A stretch of DNA of 64,000 bases, taken from the NCBI GenBank assembly GCA_046729615.1, contig JBKPHA010000029.1, forward strand, positions 12,742 to 76,741. The letters run 5' to 3'. The DNA is from Actinomycetota bacterium (GTDB taxonomy: Bacteria > Actinomycetota > Thermoleophilia > Solirubrobacterales > 70-9). The notes under the pieces were generated by a model, which made no database searches, was not told where the DNA came from, and saw only the letters and a list, made by a program, of their open reading frames with translations. Of this stretch, positions 2,678 to 33,397 are shown piece by piece. A program made the translations under genes and the position numbers. Numbering within the stretch: the stretch's first letter is position 1; each line of letters begins with the position of its first letter.

Positions 2678-3000
2678 CGCTGGCTCGGATGCCCCTCGCC
2701 CGGCCACGGGGAGAGGAGGAGCAGTAGCCGGGCGTCGTCGGACGCGCGGACCTCGCGGCGCTCGTTCGGGTTGAACTCGGCGAGCAGGCCGGTCCCGCCG
2801 GTGACCGAATCGCCGCCCGAGTCCTCGATCTCGATCGAGCCGCTCACCACGAGCAGCCACGCGCGCTCGTGGACCTGGTGCTCTTGGAGGCGCTCGCCGG
2901 CGGGCAGGTTGATCACGATGGCCCTTCCCTCCCGCTCCGAGTCGAGCACTGAGGGATTATGCGGCTGCACGTCGAGCGTCGCCAGATCCCAGCTCCGCAT
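2674..3000 (-). CDS. cupin domain protein
   Basis: 108 aa with beta-barrel-like segments (AIVINLPAGERLQEHQVHERAWLLVVSGSIEIE). Its stop overlaps the aroA stop on the opposite strand (CTAA). Confidence 0.6.
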   Translation of the reverse strand: MRSWDLATLDVQPHNPSVLDSEREGRAIVINLPAGERLQEHQVHERAWLLVVSGSIEIEDSGGDSVTGGTGLLAEFNPNERREVRASDDARLLLLLSPWPGEGHPSQR

Positions 3001-3032
3001 GGTGGGCGCAACTCTATCCTCAGCGGCCGATC

Positions 3033-3677
3033 ATGGTCATCGCGATCGACGGCCCAGCGGGCGCCGGAAAGTCGACCGTCGCGAGAGGGGTGGCGGACGC
3101 TCTGGGCTTCACCTACCTCGACTCCGGCGCCATGTACAGATGCGTCGCTTTGGCCGCGCTGCGTGCGGGCGTGGACGTCGACCACGGACGGGCGGTGGGC
3201 GAGCTCGCGAGCGCAATCCGGATCGAGCCGGCGGACGGGCGCGTGCTGCTGGACGGCGAGGACGTCACGCAGGCGATCCGCGCGCCCGAGGTCACAGCGG
3301 CCGCGTCGCGAGTGTCCGTTCATCCGGCGGTGCGTCAGGCGATGGTCGCGCGGCAGCGTGCCCTGATCGAGTCCGGCGACTACGTCGCGGAGGGTCGCGA
3401 CATCGGCACCGTGGTCAGCCCGGACGCTCCGCTCAAGGTCTTCCTGACCGCCTCGCCCGAGGAGCGGGCATGGCGCCGCGCCGCCGAGACGGGGGAGGAG
3501 TTCGACGACGTGCTTGCGGCGCACTCGGGGCGAGACGCCCGGGACCGCGAGCGCGAGCATGGCGCACTGCGGCCGGCGAGCGACTCGGTCGAGATCGACA
3601 CGACCGGTCTCGAAGTCGGCGAGGCCACGTCGCGCGTCGTCGCACTCGCGCGCGAGCGCGGGCTGGTAGAGCGGTGA
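3033..3677 (+). CDS. cmk: cytidylate kinase
   Basis: MVIAIDGPAGAGKSTVAR P-loop, followed by LDSGAMYR. Confidence 0.9.
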   Translation: MVIAIDGPAGAGKSTVARGVADALGFTYLDSGAMYRCVALAALRAGVDVDHGRAVGELASAIRIEPADGRVLLDGEDVTQAIRAPEVTAAASRVSVHPAVRQAMVARQRALIESGDYVAEGRDIGTVVSPDAPLKVFLTASPEERAWRRAAETGEEFDDVLAAHSGRDARDREREHGALRPASDSVEIDTTGLEVGEATSRVVALARERGLVER

Positions 3678-3903
3678 CTCCTCCCACGACAGCACACCTC
3701 ACCCGCCTGCAAACCTTCACCAGCCGGCGCGGCGCCTCCGGCGCCGACGGCATCCATGCCTACTCGCTCGCGCACCTTTCAGGTGCGCCACGCTCACTGC
3801 GTCCTTGCCTGACTCGGGACGCGGGCTATCGCCTGCGCCACCGTTCGCCATCCATGGCTCACTGGCCGGCTGAGGCGCACTGCCGCGGAAGGAGGCACCG
3901 CTG
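3671..3903 (+). repeat. structured intercistronic repeat, copy A (diverged, with an insertion)
   Basis: Shares the core GCGCGGCGCCTNCGGCGCCGACGGCATCCNTGCCT..TCGCTCGCG-hairpin-CCACGCTCNCTGCGTCNTTGCCTG with 14667-14861 and the reverse complement of 32969-33163. Terminal inverted repeats are 3671-3684 and 3888-3901. Confidence 0.8.
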
Positions 3904-5268
3904 GTGAACGCCCGCGTACCGCAGATCGCGGTGGTCGGGTTTGCCAACGTGGGCAAGTCCACGCTCGTGAACCGGCTCGCGGGCGGCCGAGAGGCGGTGG
4001 TTCATCCCGACGCCGGCGTCACGCGCGACCGCAAGGCCGTGGAGACCGAGTGGAACGGGGTCACGTTCCAGCTCATCGACACAGGCGGAGTCGACCCCGC
4101 CGCCGAGGATTCTCTTTCGCGCGCGGTCCAGCGCCAGACGCGCGAGGCGATCTCGAACGCCGATGCCGCCGTGGTGGTGGTCGATGCCCGCGCCGGGCTG
4201 CGGCAGGGCGACGCCGAGGTCGCCAACATCCTGCGCCGCGCCGACATCCCCGTCTTCGTCGCGGCGAACAAGCTCGACGAGCCGGGCGACGATTACCTGG
4301 CGGCGGAGTTTCACCGGCTCGGGCTCGGCGATCCGTTTCCGGTCTCTGCCGCCCAGGGCCACGGCACCGGCGATCTCCTGGACCGCCTCGCGGACGTCGT
4401 TCGTGGCGCGTTTGGAGACGGCGCGGCGGAGTCCGACGCCGATGTCGTGGGGGTGGCCGTCATCGGACGGCCGAACGTGGGCAAGTCGTCGCTTGTCAAC
4501 CGGTTCCTCGGCTTGGAAAGGGTGATCGTCTCCGAGGTCGCGGGCACGACACGCGACGCGATCGACACCGAACTCGTGTTTAGCGACCGCCGGCTCATCC
4601 TCGTCGATACGGCTGGGCTTCGCCGCCGGACGAAGGTCGCAGGGACCGTCGCCTACTACGCGCAGCTGCGAGCCGAGCGGGCGGCCGAGCGCGCCGACGT
4701 GGCCCTGCTCGTGTGCGACGCCTCGGAGGGCGTCACCTCCGAGGACCTGCGGATCGCGGAGCTCGCGATGCGAACGGGCTGCGCGACGCTCGTCGCCCTC
4801 AACAAATGGGACATCGGCCGCACCGATCTGGCGGACGTGACGGCCCGGCTCGCCAAGCGCCTGCGCCAGCGGCCGCCGGTCATGACGTGTTCCGCCCGAA
4901 CCGGGCGGAATGTCACGAGGCTCCTGGAGCGCGCGATCGAGCTCGCCGAGAAGCGCGCGTCGCGGATCCCGACATCCGAGCTCAATCGCTTCGTCGGCGA
5001 GCTGAGCGCGAGCCGCCCGCCGCCGGCGAAGCGGGGCCGGCGGCTGCGGATCTACTATGCGGCCCAGGTGGAGCGCCGGCCGCCGCGCTTCGCCATCCAG
5101 GTCAACGACCGCCGGCTGATCTCGCGCGAGTGGGCGTACCACCTCGAGAACCGCCTGCGCGAGGAGTTCGGCTTCGAGGGTATCCCGCTGATCATCGACT
5201 TCGTGCCGCACTCGCGCCGGCAGCGCCCCCGCGCCGGGGCCGAAGGCAGCCGGTATAGGGGAGGCTAG
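3904..5268 (+). CDS. der: ribosome-associated GTPase Der/EngA (two GTPase domains plus KH-like domain)
   Basis: Two G1 motifs ([18 protein letters not shown]), two DTGG/DTAG motifs and NKLD/NKWD motifs. GTG start 8 nt after AAGGAGG. Confidence 0.9.
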
Positions 5269-9315: not shown

Positions 9316-9379
9316 GGCCGAAGCATAAGCGGCGTGCCACCGATGACGCCGCCGCGCCGACCACTAGCTTCAAGCTGCC

Positions 9380-11560
9380 ATGGCGATCGCGAAGATCGAA
9401 CCGCTTCTGACCGCCCGCGCCGTGAGCGGCCCCTTCGACTACCGGCTCCCCGATCGACTCCGCGACGTGGGCGTCGGGTCCGTGCTGCGGATTCCGTTCG
9501 GCCGCCGGCGGGTCGTCGGCGTCGTCGTCGAGGTGGCCGAATCCAGCGATCTGCCCCCCGAGCGGCTGGCGGAGCCGCTCGAGGCGCTCGCAGCGGCCGT
9601 GCCGGAGCTCGTACGGCTGGGCCTGTGGGTGGCGCACCAGTACTGCTCGACTCCGGCCCGCGGCTTGGAGCTCGTGCTGCCGCCGGGCACCGGGCGCGCG
9701 GGCCGCAGACCGCGGCCTCGCGTCGAGCTCTCCGCGAGGTTGACTGCGGCGGGTCGCGACGCGCTCGCCAACGGCGCTCGCCTCGGGCCTGTCCAGCGCG
9801 CCACGCTCAAGGCACTGGCCGACGCGACCGAGCTCACCGCGGCTGAGTTTCGGACGGCCGGGACGGGCGCGCGGTCGCTTCGGCGGCTCGAGGGCCGAGG
9901 GCTCGTCGAGCTGCGCCGGACCGAGCGGGCTCGCCGGCCCGTGATCGTCGGCATCGGCGCGCCCTCCGGGCGGCCCGAGCTCACGGCGGCCCAGTCGGCG
10001 GCGCTCGCGCGGATCACGGAATCGATGAACGCCGACGGCGACGGCGAGCTTCTCCTTCACGGCGTCACCGGCTCGGGCAAGACCGAGGTCTATCTCGCCG
10101 CGGCGGAGGCGGCGCTCGAGCGCGGGCGCGGCGCGATCGTCCTCGTCCCCGAGATCGCTCTCGCCCCGCAGACCGTGTCGCGCTTCGCCGCGCGCTTCGG
10201 CGACCGCGTGGCGCTCCTTCACTCGCGCCTGTCCGGCGGTGAGCGCCGCGACGAGTGGGAACGGCTTCGGGCCGGGGAGGCGAGGGTGTGCGTGGGTCCG
10301 AGATCGGCGGTATTCGCGCCGGTGCGTGACCTGGGCCTCCTCGTCGTCGACGAGGAGCATGACCCCTCCTACAAGCAGGAGGGCGATCCCCGTTACGACG
10401 CCCGCGAGGTGGCGCGATACCGGACCCGGGGGTGCGGCACCATGCTGGTCTGCGGCAGCGCCACACCCAGGCCGGAGAGCTGGGAGCGCATGCCCCGCGT
10501 GGATCTCCCGGAGCGCGCGGACGGCGCGCCGCTGCCGCCCGTGGAGGTCCTCGACATGCGCGCGAGGTCAGGGCGCGAGGGGCCGCTTCACCCACGGACC
10601 ATCGAGTGCCTGCGCGAGGTCCGTTCAGGCGGCGGCAAGGCGATCGTCTTGCTCAACCGCCGCGGGTGGTCACCGCATCTCGAGTGCCGGTCGTGCGGGC
10701 GGGCGTGGGGATGCCCGGAGTGCGACGTCTCGTTGGTCCTCCACAAGCGCGAGGGTCGACTGCGCTGCCACCACTGCGGCCACGCCGAGCGCCTGCCCAC
10801 GTCCTGCCCGGGTTGCGGCTCGGTGACCCTCGCGCGCCACGGCGCCGGAACCGAGCGGGTGGCGGAGATCCTCGCCGAGGCGGTAGACCCGGTGCCGGTC
10901 TTTCGCCTCGACTCCGACAGCGCCGCACCCGCCGGCCGGCACCTGGACATCCTCCGTCGCTTCGATGCCGCCAAGGGCGGCGTTCTCGTCGGGACCCAGA
11001 TGGTCGGCAAGGGCCACGACTTCCCGGACGTCGTCCTGAGCGTCGTGCTGGACGCCGACGCGACACTGCGGTTCCCGGACTTTCGCTCGGAGGAGCGCAC
11101 GTTCGCCCTCGTCGCTCAGCTCGCCGGCCGCAGCGGGCGCGGCCCGCGCGGCGGCCGCGTGCTCGTCCAGACACTCGCGCCGGCCGCGCCCGCGATTCGG
11201 GACGCCGCGGCGCATGACACGCCGGGGTTCCTTGCGGCGGAGCTCGAACGGCGGCGTGCGCTCGGATACCCCCCCTTCTCGCACCTCGTGCGCTTGGAGC
11301 TCACCGCGCGCGACGCGGGGCGCGTCGAGGCCGCCGCGCGCACCGCGCACCGCCGATTGAGTGACGGCCTGCCCCCCGGCGTTGCGCTGCTGGGGCCCGC
11401 TCCACGCTTCCGCTTGCGGGGGCGGCACCGGCGCCAGCTCCTGCTGAAGGCGCCGGAGCGCGAGCCCGCCGTGGCCGCGGTGGGCGTGGCGGTGGACCAG
11501 CTCGCCACGTCAAGGGAGCTTCGCGAGGTCTCGATCAGCGTCGACGTCGATCCCGGGTAG
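9380..11560 (+). CDS. priA: primosomal protein N' (replication restart helicase)
   Basis: Walker A LLHGVTGSGKTEVY, DEEHD box, and Cys-rich zinc region (CRSCGRAWGCPECDVSLVLHKREGRLRCHHCG). Confidence 0.9.
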   Translation: MAIAKIEPLLTARAVSGPFDYRLPDRLRDVGVGSVLRIPFGRRRVVGVVVEVAESSDLPPERLAEPLEALAAAVPELVRLGLWVAHQYCSTPARGLELVLPPGTGRAGRRPRPRVELSARLTAAGRDALANGARLGPVQRATLKALADATELTAAEFRTAGTGARSLRRLEGRGLVELRRTERARRPVIVGIGAPSGRPELTAAQSAALARITESMNADGDGELLLHGVTGSGKTEVYLAAAEAALERGRGAIVLVPEIALAPQTVSRFAARFGDRVALLHSRLSGGERRDEWERLRAGEARVCVGPRSAVFAPVRDLGLLVVDEEHDPSYKQEGDPRYDAREVARYRTRGCGTMLVCGSATPRPESWERMPRVDLPERADGAPLPPVEVLDMRARSGREGPLHPRTIECLREVRSGGGKAIVLLNRRGWSPHLECRSCGRAWGCPECDVSLVLHKREGRLRCHHCGHAERLPTSCPGCGSVTLARHGAGTERVAEILAEAVDPVPVFRLDSDSAAPAGRHLDILRRFDAAKGGVLVGTQMVGKGHDFPDVVLSVVLDADATLRFPDFRSEERTFALVAQLAGRSGRGPRGGRVLVQTLAPAAPAIRDAAAHDTPGFLAAELERRRALGYPPFSHLVRLELTARDAGRVEAAARTAHRRLSDGLPPGVALLGPAPRFRLRGRHRRQLLLKAPEREPAVAAVGVAVDQLATSRELREVSISVDVDPG

Positions 11561-13149: not shown

Positions 13150-14438
13150 GCCGCGACCACGTCGCGCCCGCCCGGCGCGCCGCCTACGAGGTCCTGCGGC
13201 GGGTCTTCGAGCACGGCGCCTGGGCCGACCGCGCGTTTGCGGCCGCCGCCGAGCGCCATCGCCTCGACGAGCGCGAGCGCAGCCAGGCGCAGCGCCTGGC
13301 TTATGGCGCCGTCCAGCGACGCGGAACCACCGACCGCCTTACCTCGGAGCTCGCGGGCCGGCCCGTGGCCCGGCTGGATCCGCCGGTGCTTGCCGCCCTG
13401 CGACTGGGGCTGTATGAGCTCCTGTTCTCCGATGCGACACCCGCGCATGCGGCGGTGGACCAGGCCGTCGAGTTGGCGAAGGGCGGGGGCGGCAAGCGGC
13501 GCCGCGCCGGCGCGTCGCTGGTGAACGCGGTGCTGCGTCGCGCCGCAGCGGGCGGCGACCTGCTCGCCGAGCTCGACGACTCAACGCCCGAGGGGGCGGC
13601 AACGCGTCATTCGTTTCCGGAGTGGCTCGCGCGGATGTGGTGGTCGGAGCTGGGCCCGGAGGATGCACGTTCCCTGATGGCGGCGCTGAACGAACCCGCC
13701 GAGACGGCGCTCCGGGTCAACACGCTGAAGGCCGACCGCGAGGCGCTCATGACGGAGCTCCGGGGTGGCGGCGACCGGATCGACAGGCACGGCTCCGGGC
13801 TGCTGGGGCCGCCGGAGGCCCTGGTCGTGACCGGGTCGCTGACTGAGCGATTGCGGGCCCGCATCGACGCTGGCGAGCTCGTGCCCCAGGCGCGCGGCTC
13901 GCAGGCGGTTGTCGCGGAGCTCGACCCCCACCCGGGCGAGCGGATCCTCGACCTCTGCTCGGCGCCCGGCATCAAGACGACCGCGATCGCCGCGCGAATG
14001 AGCGACTCGGGAGAGGTGGTCGCGGTCGATCGGGATCCCGGTCGAGCTGCGCAGCTCGGCGCGCTGTGCGCGCGCCTCGGCGTCACATGTGCGCGAGTCA
14101 TCGTCGCGGATGCCACGGAGGACGACCTGGGCGGCGGCTACGATCGCGTCCTCGTGGATCCACCGTGCTCCGATCTCGGGACGCTGGCCTCGCGGCCGGA
14201 CGCTCGCTGGCGCAAGTCGCCCGAGCTGATCGAGCGCCTGTCGGGGTTGCAGGCCAAGATCCTGCACCGGGCGCTGCAGGCCGTGAGGCCGGGCGGAACG
14301 CTCGTCTACTCCGTCTGCACTATCTCGCGGCGCGAGGGCCCAGATCAGGTCGAGTCGCTCCGAGCCCGATCCGTGCAGCTTCGCCCCGATCGCGACCGAA
14401 CCGACGGGTTCTTCATCGCCCGGCTGGAGCGCACCTAG
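13146..14438 (+). CDS. rsmB: 16S rRNA (cytosine967-C5)-methyltransferase (NusB-like N-domain plus SAM methyltransferase)
   Basis: Follows fmt. DLCSAPGIKT, VDPPCSDLGT and YSVCT motifs. Start taken at ATG 13146, overlapping the fmt stop. Confidence 0.85.
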   Translation: MSRDHVAPARRAAYEVLRRVFEHGAWADRAFAAAAERHRLDERERSQAQRLAYGAVQRRGTTDRLTSELAGRPVARLDPPVLAALRLGLYELLFSDATPAHAAVDQAVELAKGGGGKRRRAGASLVNAVLRRAAAGGDLLAELDDSTPEGAATRHSFPEWLARMWWSELGPEDARSLMAALNEPAETALRVNTLKADREALMTELRGGGDRIDRHGSGLLGPPEALVVTGSLTERLRARIDAGELVPQARGSQAVVAELDPHPGERILDLCSAPGIKTTAIAARMSDSGEVVAVDRDPGRAAQLGALCARLGVTCARVIVADATEDDLGGGYDRVLVDPPCSDLGTLASRPDARWRKSPELIERLSGLQAKILHRALQAVRPGGTLVYSVCTISRREGPDQVESLRARSVQLRPDRDRTDGFFIARLERT

Positions 14439-14669
14439 ATGGCGACCGGGGACGCCACGCTCAAGCGGCCCGCATGCCCCGGCTGTGGTGAGCCGTGGCT
14501 TCGGCCCACTCAGCTTCCTGGCCGCTACCGCTGCGTCTACTGCCTGCGGCGCTACGAGCTCGTCTCGCAGTGCCCGAACTGCGGCGAGCATCAGACGATC
14601 GTCCGCATGAGCACCTCCGAGGACCTGCTCTGCCAGCATTGCGGCCACTCGATGCTGCGCCCCGTTTAG
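14439..14669 (+). CDS. small double zinc-ribbon protein (four CxxC pairs), function unknown
   Basis: 76 aa with CPGC, CVYC, CPNC and CQHC. ATG directly abuts the rsmB TAG (TAGATG). Confidence 0.5.
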   Translation: MATGDATLKRPACPGCGEPWLRPTQLPGRYRCVYCLRRYELVSQCPNCGEHQTIVRMSTSEDLLCQHCGHSMLRPV

Positions 14670-14861
14670 GTGGTACCTCCGCCGACGCTGCACCGCAAAC
14701 GGCGGTCCCAGGCGCCGTCATGCTGCGCGGCGCCTACGGCGCCGACGGCATCCCTGCCTGGTCGCTCGCGTGGGATCATGCACGCCACGCTCCCTGCGTC
14801 GTTGCCTGACGGCGCCTGTGCCTCGCCGTTTACGGCACACCGTCACCGGAGGCACCACTAG
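14667..14861 (+). repeat. structured intercistronic repeat, copy B (best-preserved archetype)
   Basis: Fills the whole junction between the zinc-ribbon gene stop and the rpe ATG. TIRs at 14667-14687 / 14841-14861. Helices at 14697-14704/14824-14831 and 14709-14720/14807-14818. Hairpins at 14729-14743 and 14768-14785. Collinear with the reverse complement of 32969-33163. Confidence 0.85.
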
Positions 14862-15542
14862 ATGGCCGCACGGGACCTGTTCGCCCGGCATCAGGTCGTG
14901 CCGTCGATCCTGTCCGGGGACTTCGCCCGGCTCGGTGCTCAGGTCGCCGAGGTCATGACCGCCGGGGCCCGCGTCATCCACGTCGACGTGATGGACGGCC
15001 ATTTCGTCCCGCCGATAACGATGGGCCCTCTGATCGCGGCGTCGATCGCGGACCAGGTGCACGGCGCCGGCGGCGGCATCGACGTTCACCTGATGATCGA
15101 GCGTCCCGCCGAGCACGTGGCGGAGTTCGTCAAAGCCGGGGCGGACTGCATCACCGCGCATTTCGAGGCCGACCCGAACATCCACCGCACGCTCGGCGCC
15201 ATCCGCGACGCAGGCTGCCTGGCCGGCGTCGCGATCAATCCCGGGACGCCGGCCGCCGCCGTCCGCGAGCTGGATGGGCACGCGGACATCGTGCTCTGCA
15301 TGACGGTCAACCCCGGGTGGGGCGGCCAGTCATTCATCCCGTCGTCCCCGGGCAAGGTCCGGCGAATCCGCGACGCCGCGCCTTCGGCCGTGATCGAGGT
15401 GGACGGGGGGATTGACGCCGACACGGTGGGCAGCATTGCCGAGGCCGGCGCGACGCTGTTTGTCGCGGGCTCAGCCGTGTTCGGGACTCCCGACCCGGGC
15501 GAGGCATTCCGTCGCATCGCGGCGGCCGCTGCCCCGGGGTAG
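14862..15542 (+). CDS. rpe: ribulose-phosphate 3-epimerase
   Basis: PSILSGDF, HVDVMDGHFVP, MTVNPGWGGQ and VDGGI motifs. Confidence 0.9.
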   Translation: MAARDLFARHQVVPSILSGDFARLGAQVAEVMTAGARVIHVDVMDGHFVPPITMGPLIAASIADQVHGAGGGIDVHLMIERPAEHVAEFVKAGADCITAHFEADPNIHRTLGAIRDAGCLAGVAINPGTPAAAVRELDGHADIVLCMTVNPGWGGQSFIPSSPGKVRRIRDAAPSAVIEVDGGIDADTVGSIAEAGATLFVAGSAVFGTPDPGEAFRRIAAAAAPG

Positions 15543-15570
15543 GCCGGACCGTGCCGGACCGGGAAGATCG

Positions 15571-16481
15571 CTCGGCTACTCGTTCCTCTGGACGCTGGAC
15601 ACGATCGCGACGATCGGGTCGGTCGGGATGCCCCGGGACACCGTCGCGCGCATCCTGGTCGTGTTCCTGATCATCTTCGGCGTCGGTACGCTCTTCTACG
15701 CGCTCGTCACGGTCACGGAGTTCCTCGTCGCGGGCCGGCTCAGCGGGCTCCTGGCTGACCGGCGCATGCAGCGGATGATCGACTCGCTCTCCGACCATGA
15801 CTCATCTGCGGCTTCGGCCCGCGTAGGTCGCCAGGTGGCCCGCGACCTGCGGGTGACGGGCCAGCCATTCGTCGTCGTCGACGACAACCCCGACAACCGC
15901 GAGATCGCGGAGGAGATGGACGCCCCCTTCCGGGAGGGACCCCCACGGAGGACGCCGTGCTGCGGCAGGCCGGGATCGGGCGGGCAAGGTCGGTGCTCGC
16001 CTGCAAGGACTCCGACGCCGAGAACATCTTCGCGACGCTCACCGCGCGCGAGCTCCGCCCCGACATCACGATCGTCGCTCGCGCCAGCGTCGAGGACTCG
16101 GAGAAAAAGCTCAAGCGTGCCAGCGCGGATCGGGTGATCTCGCCGTACAAGGCGAGCGGCGCCGAGATGGCACGTTTGGCGCTCCATCCGCAGGTCGCGG
16201 GGGTCGTCGATGTCGTGCCGGAGTACCGGATGGAGGAGATCGAGGTGATGAGCGGCTGCGCCGGCGCCGGTAAGCGCATCCGCGACCTCCGCGGCACGAC
16301 GGCGATCGTCGCGCTGCGACGCAGCGACGGCACCATCGAGCCGCAGCCCGCGGGCGAGCGCGAGCTCGAGCCGGGCGACGTCCTCGTCGCGATGGGCACG
16401 CGTGAGGCGATGGACCGCCTGGAGGAGACCTTCCAGAGCCGGGCGGCCCGCTCCACCGACGTGCGCCGGCTGAGGCCCTAA
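15571..16481 (+). pseudogene. decayed RCK/TrkA-domain potassium channel gene (N-terminally truncated, frameshifted)
   Basis: Frame 1 reads a pore-like segment (TLDTIATIGSVGMP), one TM helix and an RCK N-lobe. LICGFG of the GxGxxG motif is only readable in another frame at 15801-15818. The frame changes again near 15936-15941 into ORF 15957..16481 (RCK C-lobe). There is no M1 helix and no start codon upstream of the pore segment. Confidence 0.6.
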
Positions 16482-31840: not shown

Positions 31841-32383
31841 CTACTCGTAGACGGCCCGGATCACCGCGAAGTCCCCCTTCTCCCACACAATCTCCCCGCC
31901 GCACCATTCGGCTTGATCGGAGGCGCGCGATGGCATGTCCACGCCTGGCTCGAGCTCGACCGTCTGCGGCTCGACCAAAACGACGTCACCGAGCACAAGG
32001 GATCGGGATTGCTCGCGAACTCGCCGAAACAGATGCTTCTTCGCCGGACCATCCAGATGGTGAACGGCCAAGACGGAGATGACCAGATCCCACGGTCCGT
32101 CTGGTAGCGGGTCCTGCATCCGCGCGAGCCGGACCTCGATGGCGTGCTCGCGTGCCTTGAAGACCATGTCAGGCTGGGAGTCGAGGCCGGTGACGTCGGC
32201 GCCCGGGTAGCGCTCGAGCAGGCGCCGGGTCGTCTCGCCGGTTCCGACGCCGAGCTCCAGGACCCGGGTGGGCGCGAACGGGATCGCGTCGATCGTCGCC
32301 TCCTGAAGCTCGTCGTAAAGCGGAACCTCGGCCCGGATCTCGTCCAGGTAGGTCTCCGGATCCATGTGGAATTGCGCGCTCAC
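31841..32383 (-). CDS. class I SAM-dependent methyltransferase
   Basis: VLELGVGTGETTRRLLERYPGADVTGLDSQPDMV (motif I and post-I). Confidence 0.7.
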   Translation of the reverse strand: MSAQFHMDPETYLDEIRAEVPLYDELQEATIDAIPFAPTRVLELGVGTGETTRRLLERYPGADVTGLDSQPDMVFKAREHAIEVRLARMQDPLPDGPWDLVISVLAVHHLDGPAKKHLFRRVREQSRSLVLGDVVLVEPQTVELEPGVDMPSRASDQAEWCGGEIVWEKGDFAVIRAVYE

Positions 32384-32426
32384 AGCCGTCCTCGCAGGCG
32401 AGATCTACCGCTACCCTCGAGTCGGG

Positions 32427-32951
32427 ATGGCAGCGGGATATCACAGCGTCGATCTTTCGCGGCTCGCGCTCCGGCCCGGCTCGGGCCGGCGCCTCGACCT
32501 GGGCGTGGATCCGGGCGAGCTCGACCTCGGCGGGCAGCGCTATTCCGTGCGCGGCCCGACTGTCGATGCGCGGCTCGACCTGTCGCGCACCGCGGCCGGG
32601 TACGCGATCCGAATGCGGTTCGTCGCGCACGTCGACGGGCCCTGCATGCGCTGTCTTGCGGACGCCGACGTGCCGGTCGAGATCGACGTCCGGGAGGTCG
32701 ACCAGCCTCGCACGGCCGACGAGGAGCTCATGAGTCCCTACATCAACGAGGACGAGCTCGAGCTGGCGCGCTGGGCCCACGACGCGCTCGCCCTCGCGTT
32801 GCCGTTCCAGCTGCTTTGCCGCCCGGATTGCAGGGGGCTATGCCCGGTCTGCGGCATCTCGCTGAACGACGTCGATCCCGCCGAGCACCGCCACGAGGCC
32901 GAGCCCGATCCGCGCTGGGCGGAGCTGCGCGAGCTGAAGCTCGATCAGTGA
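32427..32951 (+). CDS. yceD: YceD/DUF177 family protein (23S rRNA accumulation protein)
   Basis: CMRCLADADVPVEIDV and LCRPDCRGLCPVCGISLN motifs. Canonical position upstream of rpmF. Start chosen at ATG 32427. Confidence 0.8.
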   Translation: MAAGYHSVDLSRLALRPGSGRRLDLGVDPGELDLGGQRYSVRGPTVDARLDLSRTAAGYAIRMRFVAHVDGPCMRCLADADVPVEIDVREVDQPRTADEELMSPYINEDELELARWAHDALALALPFQLLCRPDCRGLCPVCGISLNDVDPAEHRHEAEPDPRWAELRELKLDQ

Positions 32952-32968
32952 TCCCCCGACCCTCCGGC

Positions 32969-33163
32969 CTAGCGGTGCGTCGCACGACGGTGTGCCGGAA
33001 ACGTCGAGGTCCAGGCGTCACCAGGCAAGGACGCAGGGAGATTGGCGTGCATGACTGCACGCGAGCGACCAGGCATGGATGCCGTCGGCGCCGTAGGCGC
33101 CGCGCAGCATTGCGACGTCTGGGGCCGCCGTTTCGGGTGCAACGTCGTGTGACGTACCGCTAG
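32969..33163 (-). repeat. structured intercistronic repeat, copy C (opposite orientation to flanking genes)
   Basis: The reverse complement is collinear with copy B over its full length. 21-nt TIRs at 33143-33163 / 32969-32989 with 2 mismatches. Hairpins at 33087-33101 and 33045-33062. Both ends lie in CTAG. Confidence 0.85.
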
Positions 33164-33175
33164 CCTTACGCCCTT

Positions 33176-33397
33176 ATGGCCGTCCCCAAGAAGAGAACCT
33201 CGCGCGCGCGCCGCGACAAGCGGCGGGCCACGCACAAGGTCAGCGCGCCCCGCGTCAACGAGTGCCCGCGCTGCCACAGCCCGCGACTGCCGCACCGCGT
33301 GTGCCCGACCTGCGGCACCTACTCGGGCCGCGAAGTGATCGAGCACGAGATCCGCGAGGCGGCACCCCGGGAGACGGCTGCCGGCCCGGAGGAGTAG
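33176..33397 (+). CDS. rpmF: 50S ribosomal protein L32 (with C-terminal extension)
   Basis: MAVPKKRTSRARRDKRRA...CPRCHSPRLPHRVCPTCG. Confidence 0.9.
   Translation: MAVPKKRTSRARRDKRRATHKVSAPRVNECPRCHSPRLPHRVCPTCGTYSGREVIEHEIREAAPRETAAGPEE

Follow-up and report, generated by a model that had tools for sequence, protein, structure and literature searches.

The 64,000-nt window analysed here, from a genome of the Solirubrobacterales (contig JBKPHA010000029.1, positions 12,742 to 76,741), carries a hairpin-forming repeat of 190-240 bp at three gene junctions; the copies are called A, B and C. The three sites are empty in close relatives, junction bases are duplicated on either side of the inserted copies, and copies A and B place a perfect Shine-Dalgarno (SD) sequence before the downstream gene, where it is predicted to pair with a complementary (anti-SD) segment at the other end of the element. 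The repeat is best called a new intercistronic element resembling a MITE, a miniature transposable element with inverted repeats. We consider it somewhat probable that this palindromic, MITE-like element of the Solirubrobacterales inserts at junctions and that its SD/anti-SD arms sustain the coupling of the downstream gene to the upstream one. Such a role in translational coupling, or in masking of the ribosome-binding site, had been proposed from the letters and open reading frames of the window (hereafter the sequence-only reading).

Results

Empty sites in relatives and duplicated junctions

Syntenic loci from relatives were retrieved through homologues of MetK and PlsX. The three window sites lack the element in relatives whose flanking proteins are 85-96% identical to those of the window. 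At site A, cmk and der overlap by GTGA in the relatives (L022-L028 and L033): the junction is TCGCGGTGAGCG within CTGGTGTCGCGGTGAGCGAAC in L033 (93% MetK) and GGGCCGTGAACG within CTGGTCGGGCCGTGAACGGG in L022 (92% MetK), whereas the filled site of the window reads CTGGTAGAGCGGTGA, then the element from CTCCTCC to GGCACCGCTG, then GTGAACGCC, with GGTGA on either side. At site B the stop and start codons are separated by 2-3 nt in L022, L025 and L027 (TAG-CG-ATG, TAG-CCC-ATG) and by a 12-nt spacer in L030, the closest relative (96% MetK; TAA-GTGGTTGCTCGG-ATG), compared with TAG-element-TAG-ATG in the window. At site C, the yceD-rpmF junction, a single CTAG is found in L034 and L036 (GGCCG-CTAG-CATCACC), and one stands on each side of the element in the window (CCGGC-CTAG-element-CTAG-CCTTACG). 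Moreover, no copy was found anywhere in the syntenic loci of the relatives, about 21 kb. It follows that the element is a lineage-specific insertion, gained in the lineage of the window. An exact-match lookup of three window proteins in public assemblies returned filled sites only (L19-L21, L29, L38-L40). Assembly GCA_046735695.1, of the same species as the window, holds all three copies, copy A (L029) being identical there, and the copy B site is filled in L038-L040.

The flanking duplications are a clean CTAG (or TA) at copy C, a TAG that fits at copy B and GGTGA at copy A; the flanks are imperfect in L001 and L005, two copies from elsewhere that are described below. It is because junction bases were duplicated at insertion that gene stops and starts lie embedded in the termini of the element, as the sequence-only reading had noticed. 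A strict model of TA duplication only (IS630-like) fits B and C and fails for A, L001 and L005. That copy A split an ancestral cmk-der fusion was ruled out by the cmk tail of the window, which is collinear with the tails of L033 and L022.

The 12-nt spacer of L030 (9519-9530) and the left terminus of copy B, GTGGTACCTCCG, share 9 of 12 positions, and the host sequence CCGCTAG at the copy C site matches the end of the element. The targets may resemble the ends of the element, or the L030 spacer may be the remnant of a lost copy.

An invariant core between variable arms

A core of 27 nt is identical in copies A, B and C and was matched in none of 100 shuffles. On the strand given by the sequence-only reading, the copies fold well below their dinucleotide shuffles (z = -3.4, -5.2 and -5.3 for A, B and C). 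One scan each of genome and metagenome collections added five independent copies from Actinomycetota metagenome-assembled genomes and soil contigs (L001, L002, L004, L005 and L018), which makes eight independent copies in total, of 152-247 bp; 12 of the 15 metagenome pattern hits were chance matches within genes. The host lineage is Solirubrobacterales, and the window genome holds three copies in about 71 kb. The L001 copy sits between atpA and atpG and the L018 copy between rplQ and truA, and the L005 copy is reversed relative to its flanking genes.

When the eight copies are aligned, the core is identical at more than 40 positions. It comprises a hairpin GCGGCGCC-NNN-GGCGCCGAC, a second hairpin GGCA-UCCN-UGCC, a variable third hairpin (P3) with compensatory changes and then a conserved CTGCGTCC segment. 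The arms that close the core vary between subfamilies and are very unlike in length and sequence between copies; they are about 50-60 nt long, 75-90% complementary, and form a stem of about 50 bp. L004 and L018 are short forms, which retain the core plus about 25 bp of stem but not the outer CCTCC/GGAGG arm, and which show compensatory changes in an extra helix. In copies A and B, CCTCC at the 5' end and GGAGG at the 3' end are present on the opposite strand too, the arms being a palindromic inverted repeat.

The element does not encode a protein, as the frames through it are not conserved. A conserved peptide was ruled out: the core reads GADGIH in A and L001 and PTAPTAS in B. Rfam at gathering score gave no match in the whole window, and permissive Rfam searches of copy A and three element loci gave only mir-1193 (E = 8.1) and Guanidine-II (E = 0.72, outside the element). 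BLAST of copy B against 72,556 plasmids returned no match, a scan of viral contigs with the core pattern returned none, and a six-frame chimeric protein query, aimed at open reading frames (ORFs) annotated over the element in other places, had no hit at E <= 0.01. A covariance model of the core (R1), applied to the window and the loci (about 370 kb), recovered only the known copies, besides weak hits in coding sequence. No description of the element was found in the literature searches made.

The 27-nt core hairpin GCGGCGCCTACGGCGCCGACGGCATCC also occurs in L003 (6943-6969, Solirubrobacteraceae), the rest of the element being absent around it; it may have arisen independently or be a fragment. 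Compared with its closest relative, L001, copy A contains about 45 additional internal bases (3822-3876), and L005 has about 55 extra or rearranged bases (about 2110-2165) in the same arm-proximal region; these extra bases are secondary insertions within the element.

Position of the copies

Each of the eight independent copies borders on the stop codon of the upstream gene or overlaps it. In seven of them the flanking genes are co-directional (the remaining one is L002, whose downstream gene was not placed), and five end 0-3 nt from the downstream start. According to a tally of the L019 gene table, gaps of at most 35 nt hold about 7% of the intergenic bases and gaps of at most 12 nt about 1%; the window insertions hit tight junctions three times out of three (one overlap, one spacer of at most 12 nt and one of 35 nt). 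The tetranucleotide CTAG occurs 32 times in the 64 kb, against about 170 times expected from base composition, and several of the 32 stand at the ends of genes or immediately ahead of start codons. The location of the element is thus accounted for by target preference. The ratio of orientations with respect to the genes, 6:2, is not significant.

The junction of rsmB with the zinc-ribbon gene (14435-14441) and that of copy B with rpe (14858-14864) both read CTAGATG, and abutment of TAG and ATG appears to be a common junction type in the window genome.

SD sequences and their predicted masking

In the window, der and rpe are preceded by a perfect GGAGG 8-9 nt upstream, and the spacing is 5 nt in L001. 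The relatives shown have no SD before either gene, and their der and rpe depend on the stop/start overlap (GTGA) or on a spacer of 2-12 nt. SDs are scarce in the lineage, a 5-mer being present in 9 of 47 genes and a 4-mer in 15 of 47. That the repeat supplies the SD of der and rpe, as proposed by the sequence-only reading, is borne out. Most long copies have GGAGG or a partial GAGG at the 3' end of either strand, because the arms are palindromic; L005, in reverse orientation, has GAGG only, 10 nt before the downstream ATG.

The 5' arm of copy A (3671-3684, GCGGTGACTCCTCC, with the cmk TGA inside) agrees at 12 of 14 positions with GCGGTGCCTCCTTC, the reverse complement of GAAGGAGGCACCGC at 3888-3901. 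On direct reading, the coordinates, this complementarity, the GGAGG sites and the element-spanning ORFs all agree with what had been reported, and so does copy C (32969-33163, minus orientation), whose arms are CGTCAC/GCGACG and which has no SD on either strand. Copy C had also been said to have no downstream gene in its own orientation; it does have a gene context, being reversed between yceD and rpmF on the + strand.

The mRNAs were folded with a partition function, and a terminating ribosome was mimicked by holding nt -12 to +14 around the upstream stop single-stranded. In the free mRNA of A, B and L001, the modelled probability that SD bases are unpaired is below 0.05, except for the last G of A (0.93); it is 0.006-0.045 at four of the five bases in copy A and at most 0.002 in copy B. 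Apart from that G, folding predicts the SD to be more than 95% paired, and so upholds the proposed pairing with the anti-SD at the other end of the element. With the modelled ribosome on the stop, the probabilities are 0.30-0.87 (B), 0.10-0.92 (L001) and 0.005-0.62 (A). In this model the SD is partly freed when the upstream stop region is held open, which fits coupling by unmasking.

An ORF runs through the element in A, B, C, L001 and L005 (at copy C on the + strand, 32144..33163). In copy A the GTG at 3674, given as the start of the bridging ORF, is present, but the frame is not bounded there and is open from 2771 (ORF 2771..3907).

In L001 (676-880), atpG has no canonical start past the element: its frame begins ATA GCC ACC CAG, 5 nt past GGAGG, and the sole ATG lies across the element, where it overlaps the atpA TGA and opens a through-ORF that ends at a TAG overlapping the atpG ATA. 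This could be non-canonical reinitiation or an error of the metagenome-assembled genome. A TANNNT-like hexamer (TAGCCT, TAACCT, TAGCTT, TATAGT) lies about 6-12 nt before many starts in L019, L029, L037 and L030, and examples in the window are at 9364-9382, 33160-33178 and 221-242; this suggests that leaderless transcripts are widespread in the lineage. One hexamer of this kind, upstream of rpmF, overlaps the CTAG into which copy C inserted.

Table 1. Coordinates of the element copies, their parts and the neighbouring genes in the 64,000-nt window.
Feature	Position	Strand	Remarks
cmk	3033..3677		ORF; Pfam Cytidylate_kin; TGA at 3675-3677
Copy A	3669..3902	+	between cmk and der
Left GGTGA of copy A	3673..3677	+	cmk stop TGA 3675-3677 overlapped by GTG 3674, first codon of the through-ORF
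Anti-SD arm segment CTCCTCC, copy A	3678..3684	+	1-7 nt past the cmk stop
Conserved multi-hairpin core, copy A	3699..3817	-	covariance model match, 127.9 bits
AAGGAGG, SD for der, copy A	3889..3895	+	8 nt from the end of GGAGG to GTG; pairs with the anti-SD arm in the model
Right GGTGA of copy A	3903..3907	+	der start GTG 3904-3906 overlapped by TGA 3905-3907, end of the through-ORF
der	3904..5268		ORF; GTG at 3904; Pfam MMR_HSR1 and KH_dom-like
Zinc-ribbon gene	14439..14669		76 aa; identity by Pfam
Copy B	14670..14858	+	zinc-ribbon stop TAG 14667-14669 on the left; TAG 14859-14861 on the right, directly before rpe ATG 14862
Anti-SD CCTCC, copy B	14676..14680	+	7-11 nt past the upstream stop
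Conserved core, copy B	14695..14814	-	covariance model, 104.8 bits
SD GGAGG, copy B	14848..14852	+	9 nt upstream of the rpe ATG
rpe	14862..15542		identity by Pfam
Left CTAG, target-site duplication of copy C	32969..32972	.	single CTAG at the junction in relatives
Copy C	32973..33159	-	reversed relative to yceD (ends 32951) and rpmF (ATG 33176), both +
Conserved core, copy C	33016..33135	+	covariance model, 113.4 bits
Right CTAG, target-site duplication of copy C	33160..33163	.	its TAG closes the + strand through-ORF 12 nt before the rpmF ATG

Discussion

Our results can be brought together as follows. The repeat would be a lineage-specific, mobile or recently mobile element of 150-250 bp, with an invariant multi-hairpin core and long variable inverted-repeat arms, that inserts where stop and start codons meet between co-directional, translationally coupled genes, duplicating the bases of the junction (GGTGA, TAG, CTAG). 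In A, B and L001, its palindromic CCTCC...GGAGG arms thereby put GGAGG 5-9 nt ahead of the downstream start. According to one report (PMC10666635), termination-reinitiation coupling requires overlaps or very short spacers, so that a new mechanism would be needed after insertion by downstream genes that formerly relied on it across such an overlap or spacer. Within the mRNA, the SD would be locked within the arm helix, with the upstream stop 1-11 nt from the anti-SD segment. In vivo, a terminating ribosome, or one translating the open frame through the element and so relaying translation across it, would open the helix and free the SD; translation of the downstream gene would thus remain coupled to that of the upstream gene, and the insertion could be tolerated. 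Of this account, the presence/absence polymorphism, the duplications, the restriction to junctions, the SD with its spacing and its predicted masking are established here, whereas the action of the unmasking or relay in vivo and the way in which the element moves are inferred.

This role in coupling or masking, which the sequence-only reading had put forward, is plausible but unproven: the predicted sequestration and partial release of the SD speak for it, and a number of observations weigh against it. The evidence comes from eight independent copies only, and the SD/anti-SD pair is absent from copy C and from the short forms L004 and L018. The duplications are unequal in length and sequence between sites, and the left boundary of copy A is ambiguous within 3666-3677, where GCGGTGA is the cmk tail of relatives (L033) as well as a match to the left terminus of the family (compare L001, GATCGGTGCC). 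The bridging ORFs noticed in A and B are indeed present, but the same through-frames are open in 49%, 57% and 24% of shuffles, and A and B do not read the conserved core in the same frame. Moreover, the opposite strand folds far better in all three copies (A, -147.5 vs -113.6 kcal/mol; B, -132.8 vs -111.9; C, -121.8 vs -101.5). In a strand-neutral comparison of the left arm with the reverse-complemented right arm, 36 transitions give A.C on the strand of the sequence-only reading and G.U on the other, against 8 of the opposite kind (p = 2.5e-5); G.U against A.C is 31:5 in the cells of the consensus structure, core hairpin P3 included. Given the better arm helix on the opposite strand, the arm mismatches are not tuned for an mRNA hairpin, and the arms took shape under an influence on the strand that runs antisense in six of the eight copies. 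Since the asymmetry tracks the element rather than host transcription, it reflects either a constraint on, or a single-stranded phase of, the strand antisense in A and B.

A purely selfish MITE is a real possibility. CCTCC and GGAGG would then be ends recognised by a transposase, the ORFs and the SD by-products, and the target (CTAG, TAG or GTGA-like) rare and mostly at gene ends in a genome of 71% G+C, with downstream genes that cope. The filled and empty sites with their flanking duplications agree with this, and so do the strong depletion of CTAG and its frequent closeness to gene ends, the chance-level through-ORFs, the lack of an SD in C, L004 and L018, and an arm asymmetry independent of the direction of host transcription. 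The element is also small, has no transposase gene, carries terminal inverted repeats and occurs in dispersed copies with presence/absence polymorphism, as MITEs do. However, in classical MITEs the ends are more conserved than the interior, and here the reverse is found, the core being invariant and the ends variable. A search of the window by terminal motif found no partner insertion sequence, the motif occurring only at the six element ends and in one chance-level match. Der is a conserved ribosome-assembly GTPase, and rpe encodes an enzyme of central metabolism. Both genes lost their coupling by overlap or short spacer at insertion, and they now stand behind a perfect GGAGG at canonical spacing, with which only about 19% of the genes of the lineage are equipped.

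Alternatively, the reverse strand would be the functional one, either as a structured noncoding RNA antisense to cmk-der and zinc-ribbon-rpe or as the hairpin of a single-stranded DNA transposition intermediate, the pairing of the SD in the mRNA being incidental. We find this unlikely, although that strand folds 20-34 kcal/mol better in the three window copies, shows G.U over A.C at 36:8 in the arms and 31:5 in the consensus-structure cells including P3, and has a core that stayed invariant though the arms diverged, with compensatory changes affecting P3 and the extra helix present in L004 and L018. The scan of copy C, the sole copy scanned, showed nothing resembling a promoter or terminator in the element or beside it, Rfam gave nothing at gathering score, and its permissive matches are weak and far below gathering. 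The orientations are mixed within 64 kb, unlike those of IS200/IS605-type elements with their strict strand specificity, the duplicated CTAG at copy C speaks for a staggered double-strand cut, and a strand-specific mutational bias in a master copy could mimic the asymmetry. REPIN/RAYT and IS200/IS605-derived elements are likewise hairpin-forming and non-autonomous, and their strand-specific single-stranded form would fit the G.U asymmetry. They differ in a conserved GTAG head, which is absent here; no RAYT or TnpA gene is in view, although no search was aimed at such genes. These elements are not known to make a target duplication, whereas CTAG is duplicated at copy C. An intercistronic element of RNA processing or stability, or an attenuator, at which RNase III cuts the duplex or transcription is paused or terminated so that the flanking genes are uncoupled, seems very unlikely. 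The arms do form a stem of about 50 bp, rnc is encoded in the window downstream of plsX (syntenic with L019 11555-12286), and PMC3049150 offers precedents in Correia elements cut by RNase III and in the orientation-dependent effect of ERIC on mRNA stability. Against it, the scan at copy C found no U-tract or terminator-like site, and the stem is broken by A.C mismatches in the A and B mRNAs. Such a function is moreover compatible with coupling through the SD/anti-SD arms and not exclusive of it.

Coupling and strand asymmetry might also be combined, in a reading that we put forward tentatively and regard as doubtful. The element would be a portable, orientation-independent coupling cassette with palindromic ends made of anti-SD, SD and a terminal stop (the TAG in CTAG), which would target junctions even at a 4-nt GTGA overlap and keep downstream translation dependent on the upstream ribosome; its invariant core would act as structured single-stranded RNA or DNA on the opposite strand and be needed for mobilisation. 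Such a way of mobilising a bacterial repeat would be one not yet described.

Comparison with known elements

The sequence-only reading had likened the repeat to the mycobacterial MIRU. According to reviews, MIRU insert at operon start codons, are flanked by tetranucleotide direct repeats, have empty sites in relatives and contain an ORF coupled to the downstream gene (PMC3184786; PMC12548453), which makes them an earlier example of a mobile element keeping coupling intact at start codons (PMC12548453). The likeness in behaviour stands, since here too the insertion is exactly at the stop/start junction with duplication of its bases: both elements share intercistronic operon junctions, empty homologous sites, short flanking direct repeats (G(G)TGA, TAG and CTAG here), a through-ORF that overlaps or abuts the flanking stop and start (here in A, B, C, L001 and L005, at chance level) and a proposed survival of translational coupling after insertion. 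The repeat itself, however, is not a MIRU; membership in that family is implausible, and we would give it hardly any weight. A MIRU unit is roughly 40-100 bp (PMC3184786), compared with the 190-240 bp of the window element. MIRU often form tandem arrays, whereas the window element is single, Tandem Repeats Finder finding no array at A or B. It further differs in its long terminal-inverted-repeat hairpin with arms of about 50 bp, its invariant core, its SD/anti-SD pair, its presence in both orientations and its host, Solirubrobacterales and not Mycobacterium. The two are set apart here by size, architecture, arrays, orientation and host.

Correia/NEMIS of Neisseria, ERIC of enterobacteria and RUP of pneumococcus resemble the window element in being small and noncoding with terminal inverted repeats, target-site duplication and long RNA hairpins, and in occupying transcribed intergenic sites in both orientations, with mRNA effects that depend on orientation (PMC3049150; PMC3184786). 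No sequence relationship to Correia, ERIC or RUP was seen (no match in Rfam or in the plasmid records). In contrast to them, the window element is G+C-rich like its host, has a core more conserved than its ends, carries SD/anti-SD and not promoter or IHF sites at its ends, and targets stop/start junctions, including a GTGA overlap. According to the same two sources (PMC3184786; PMC3049150), REP2 of Neisseria supplies the downstream gene with a ribosome-binding site and start codon, and pneumococcal BOX often provides the stop codon of the upstream gene and forms ORFs. REP2 differs in having a promoter and no terminal inverted repeats, BOX in being modular (boxA, boxB, boxC), and neither is described as pairing an SD with an anti-SD at its other end.

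Significance and neighbouring observations

If the SD/anti-SD pair works as modelled, the element would be a natural transposable module that rewires translational coupling, in which termination-reinitiation at an overlap gives way to ribosome-dependent unmasking of an SD over a distance of about 200 nt. Mobile elements adapted to operon junctions would then have a second, independent example besides MIRU. The element would also illustrate how actinobacterial genomes that are compact and mostly poor in SDs put up with insertions between conserved housekeeping genes. Its G.U bias on one strand, together with variable ends around an invariant core, points to a mechanism of mobilisation still to be elucidated. 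Annotation of Solirubrobacterales genomes should take account of such elements, which widen intergenic gaps, give rise to spurious ORFs and change the ends of genes (the cmk tail; atpG in L001).

Another palindromic repeat, CGAGTGAGCGATTGGGGCCCT-nnn-AGGTCCCGAATCACTCACTCG, occurs at two intergenic sites in L022-L026 (5783-5841 and 11447-11491). It is absent from the window, and its carriers lack the window element; each lineage seems to have small hairpin repeats of its own. Downstream of rpe, the window has a gap of 415 nt (15543-15956) before an ORF of 174 aa of TrkA type, whereas in the more distant relative L028 a TrkA gene of 355 aa lies 8 nt past rpe. The TrkA-type ORF of the window may be a truncated or decayed gene.

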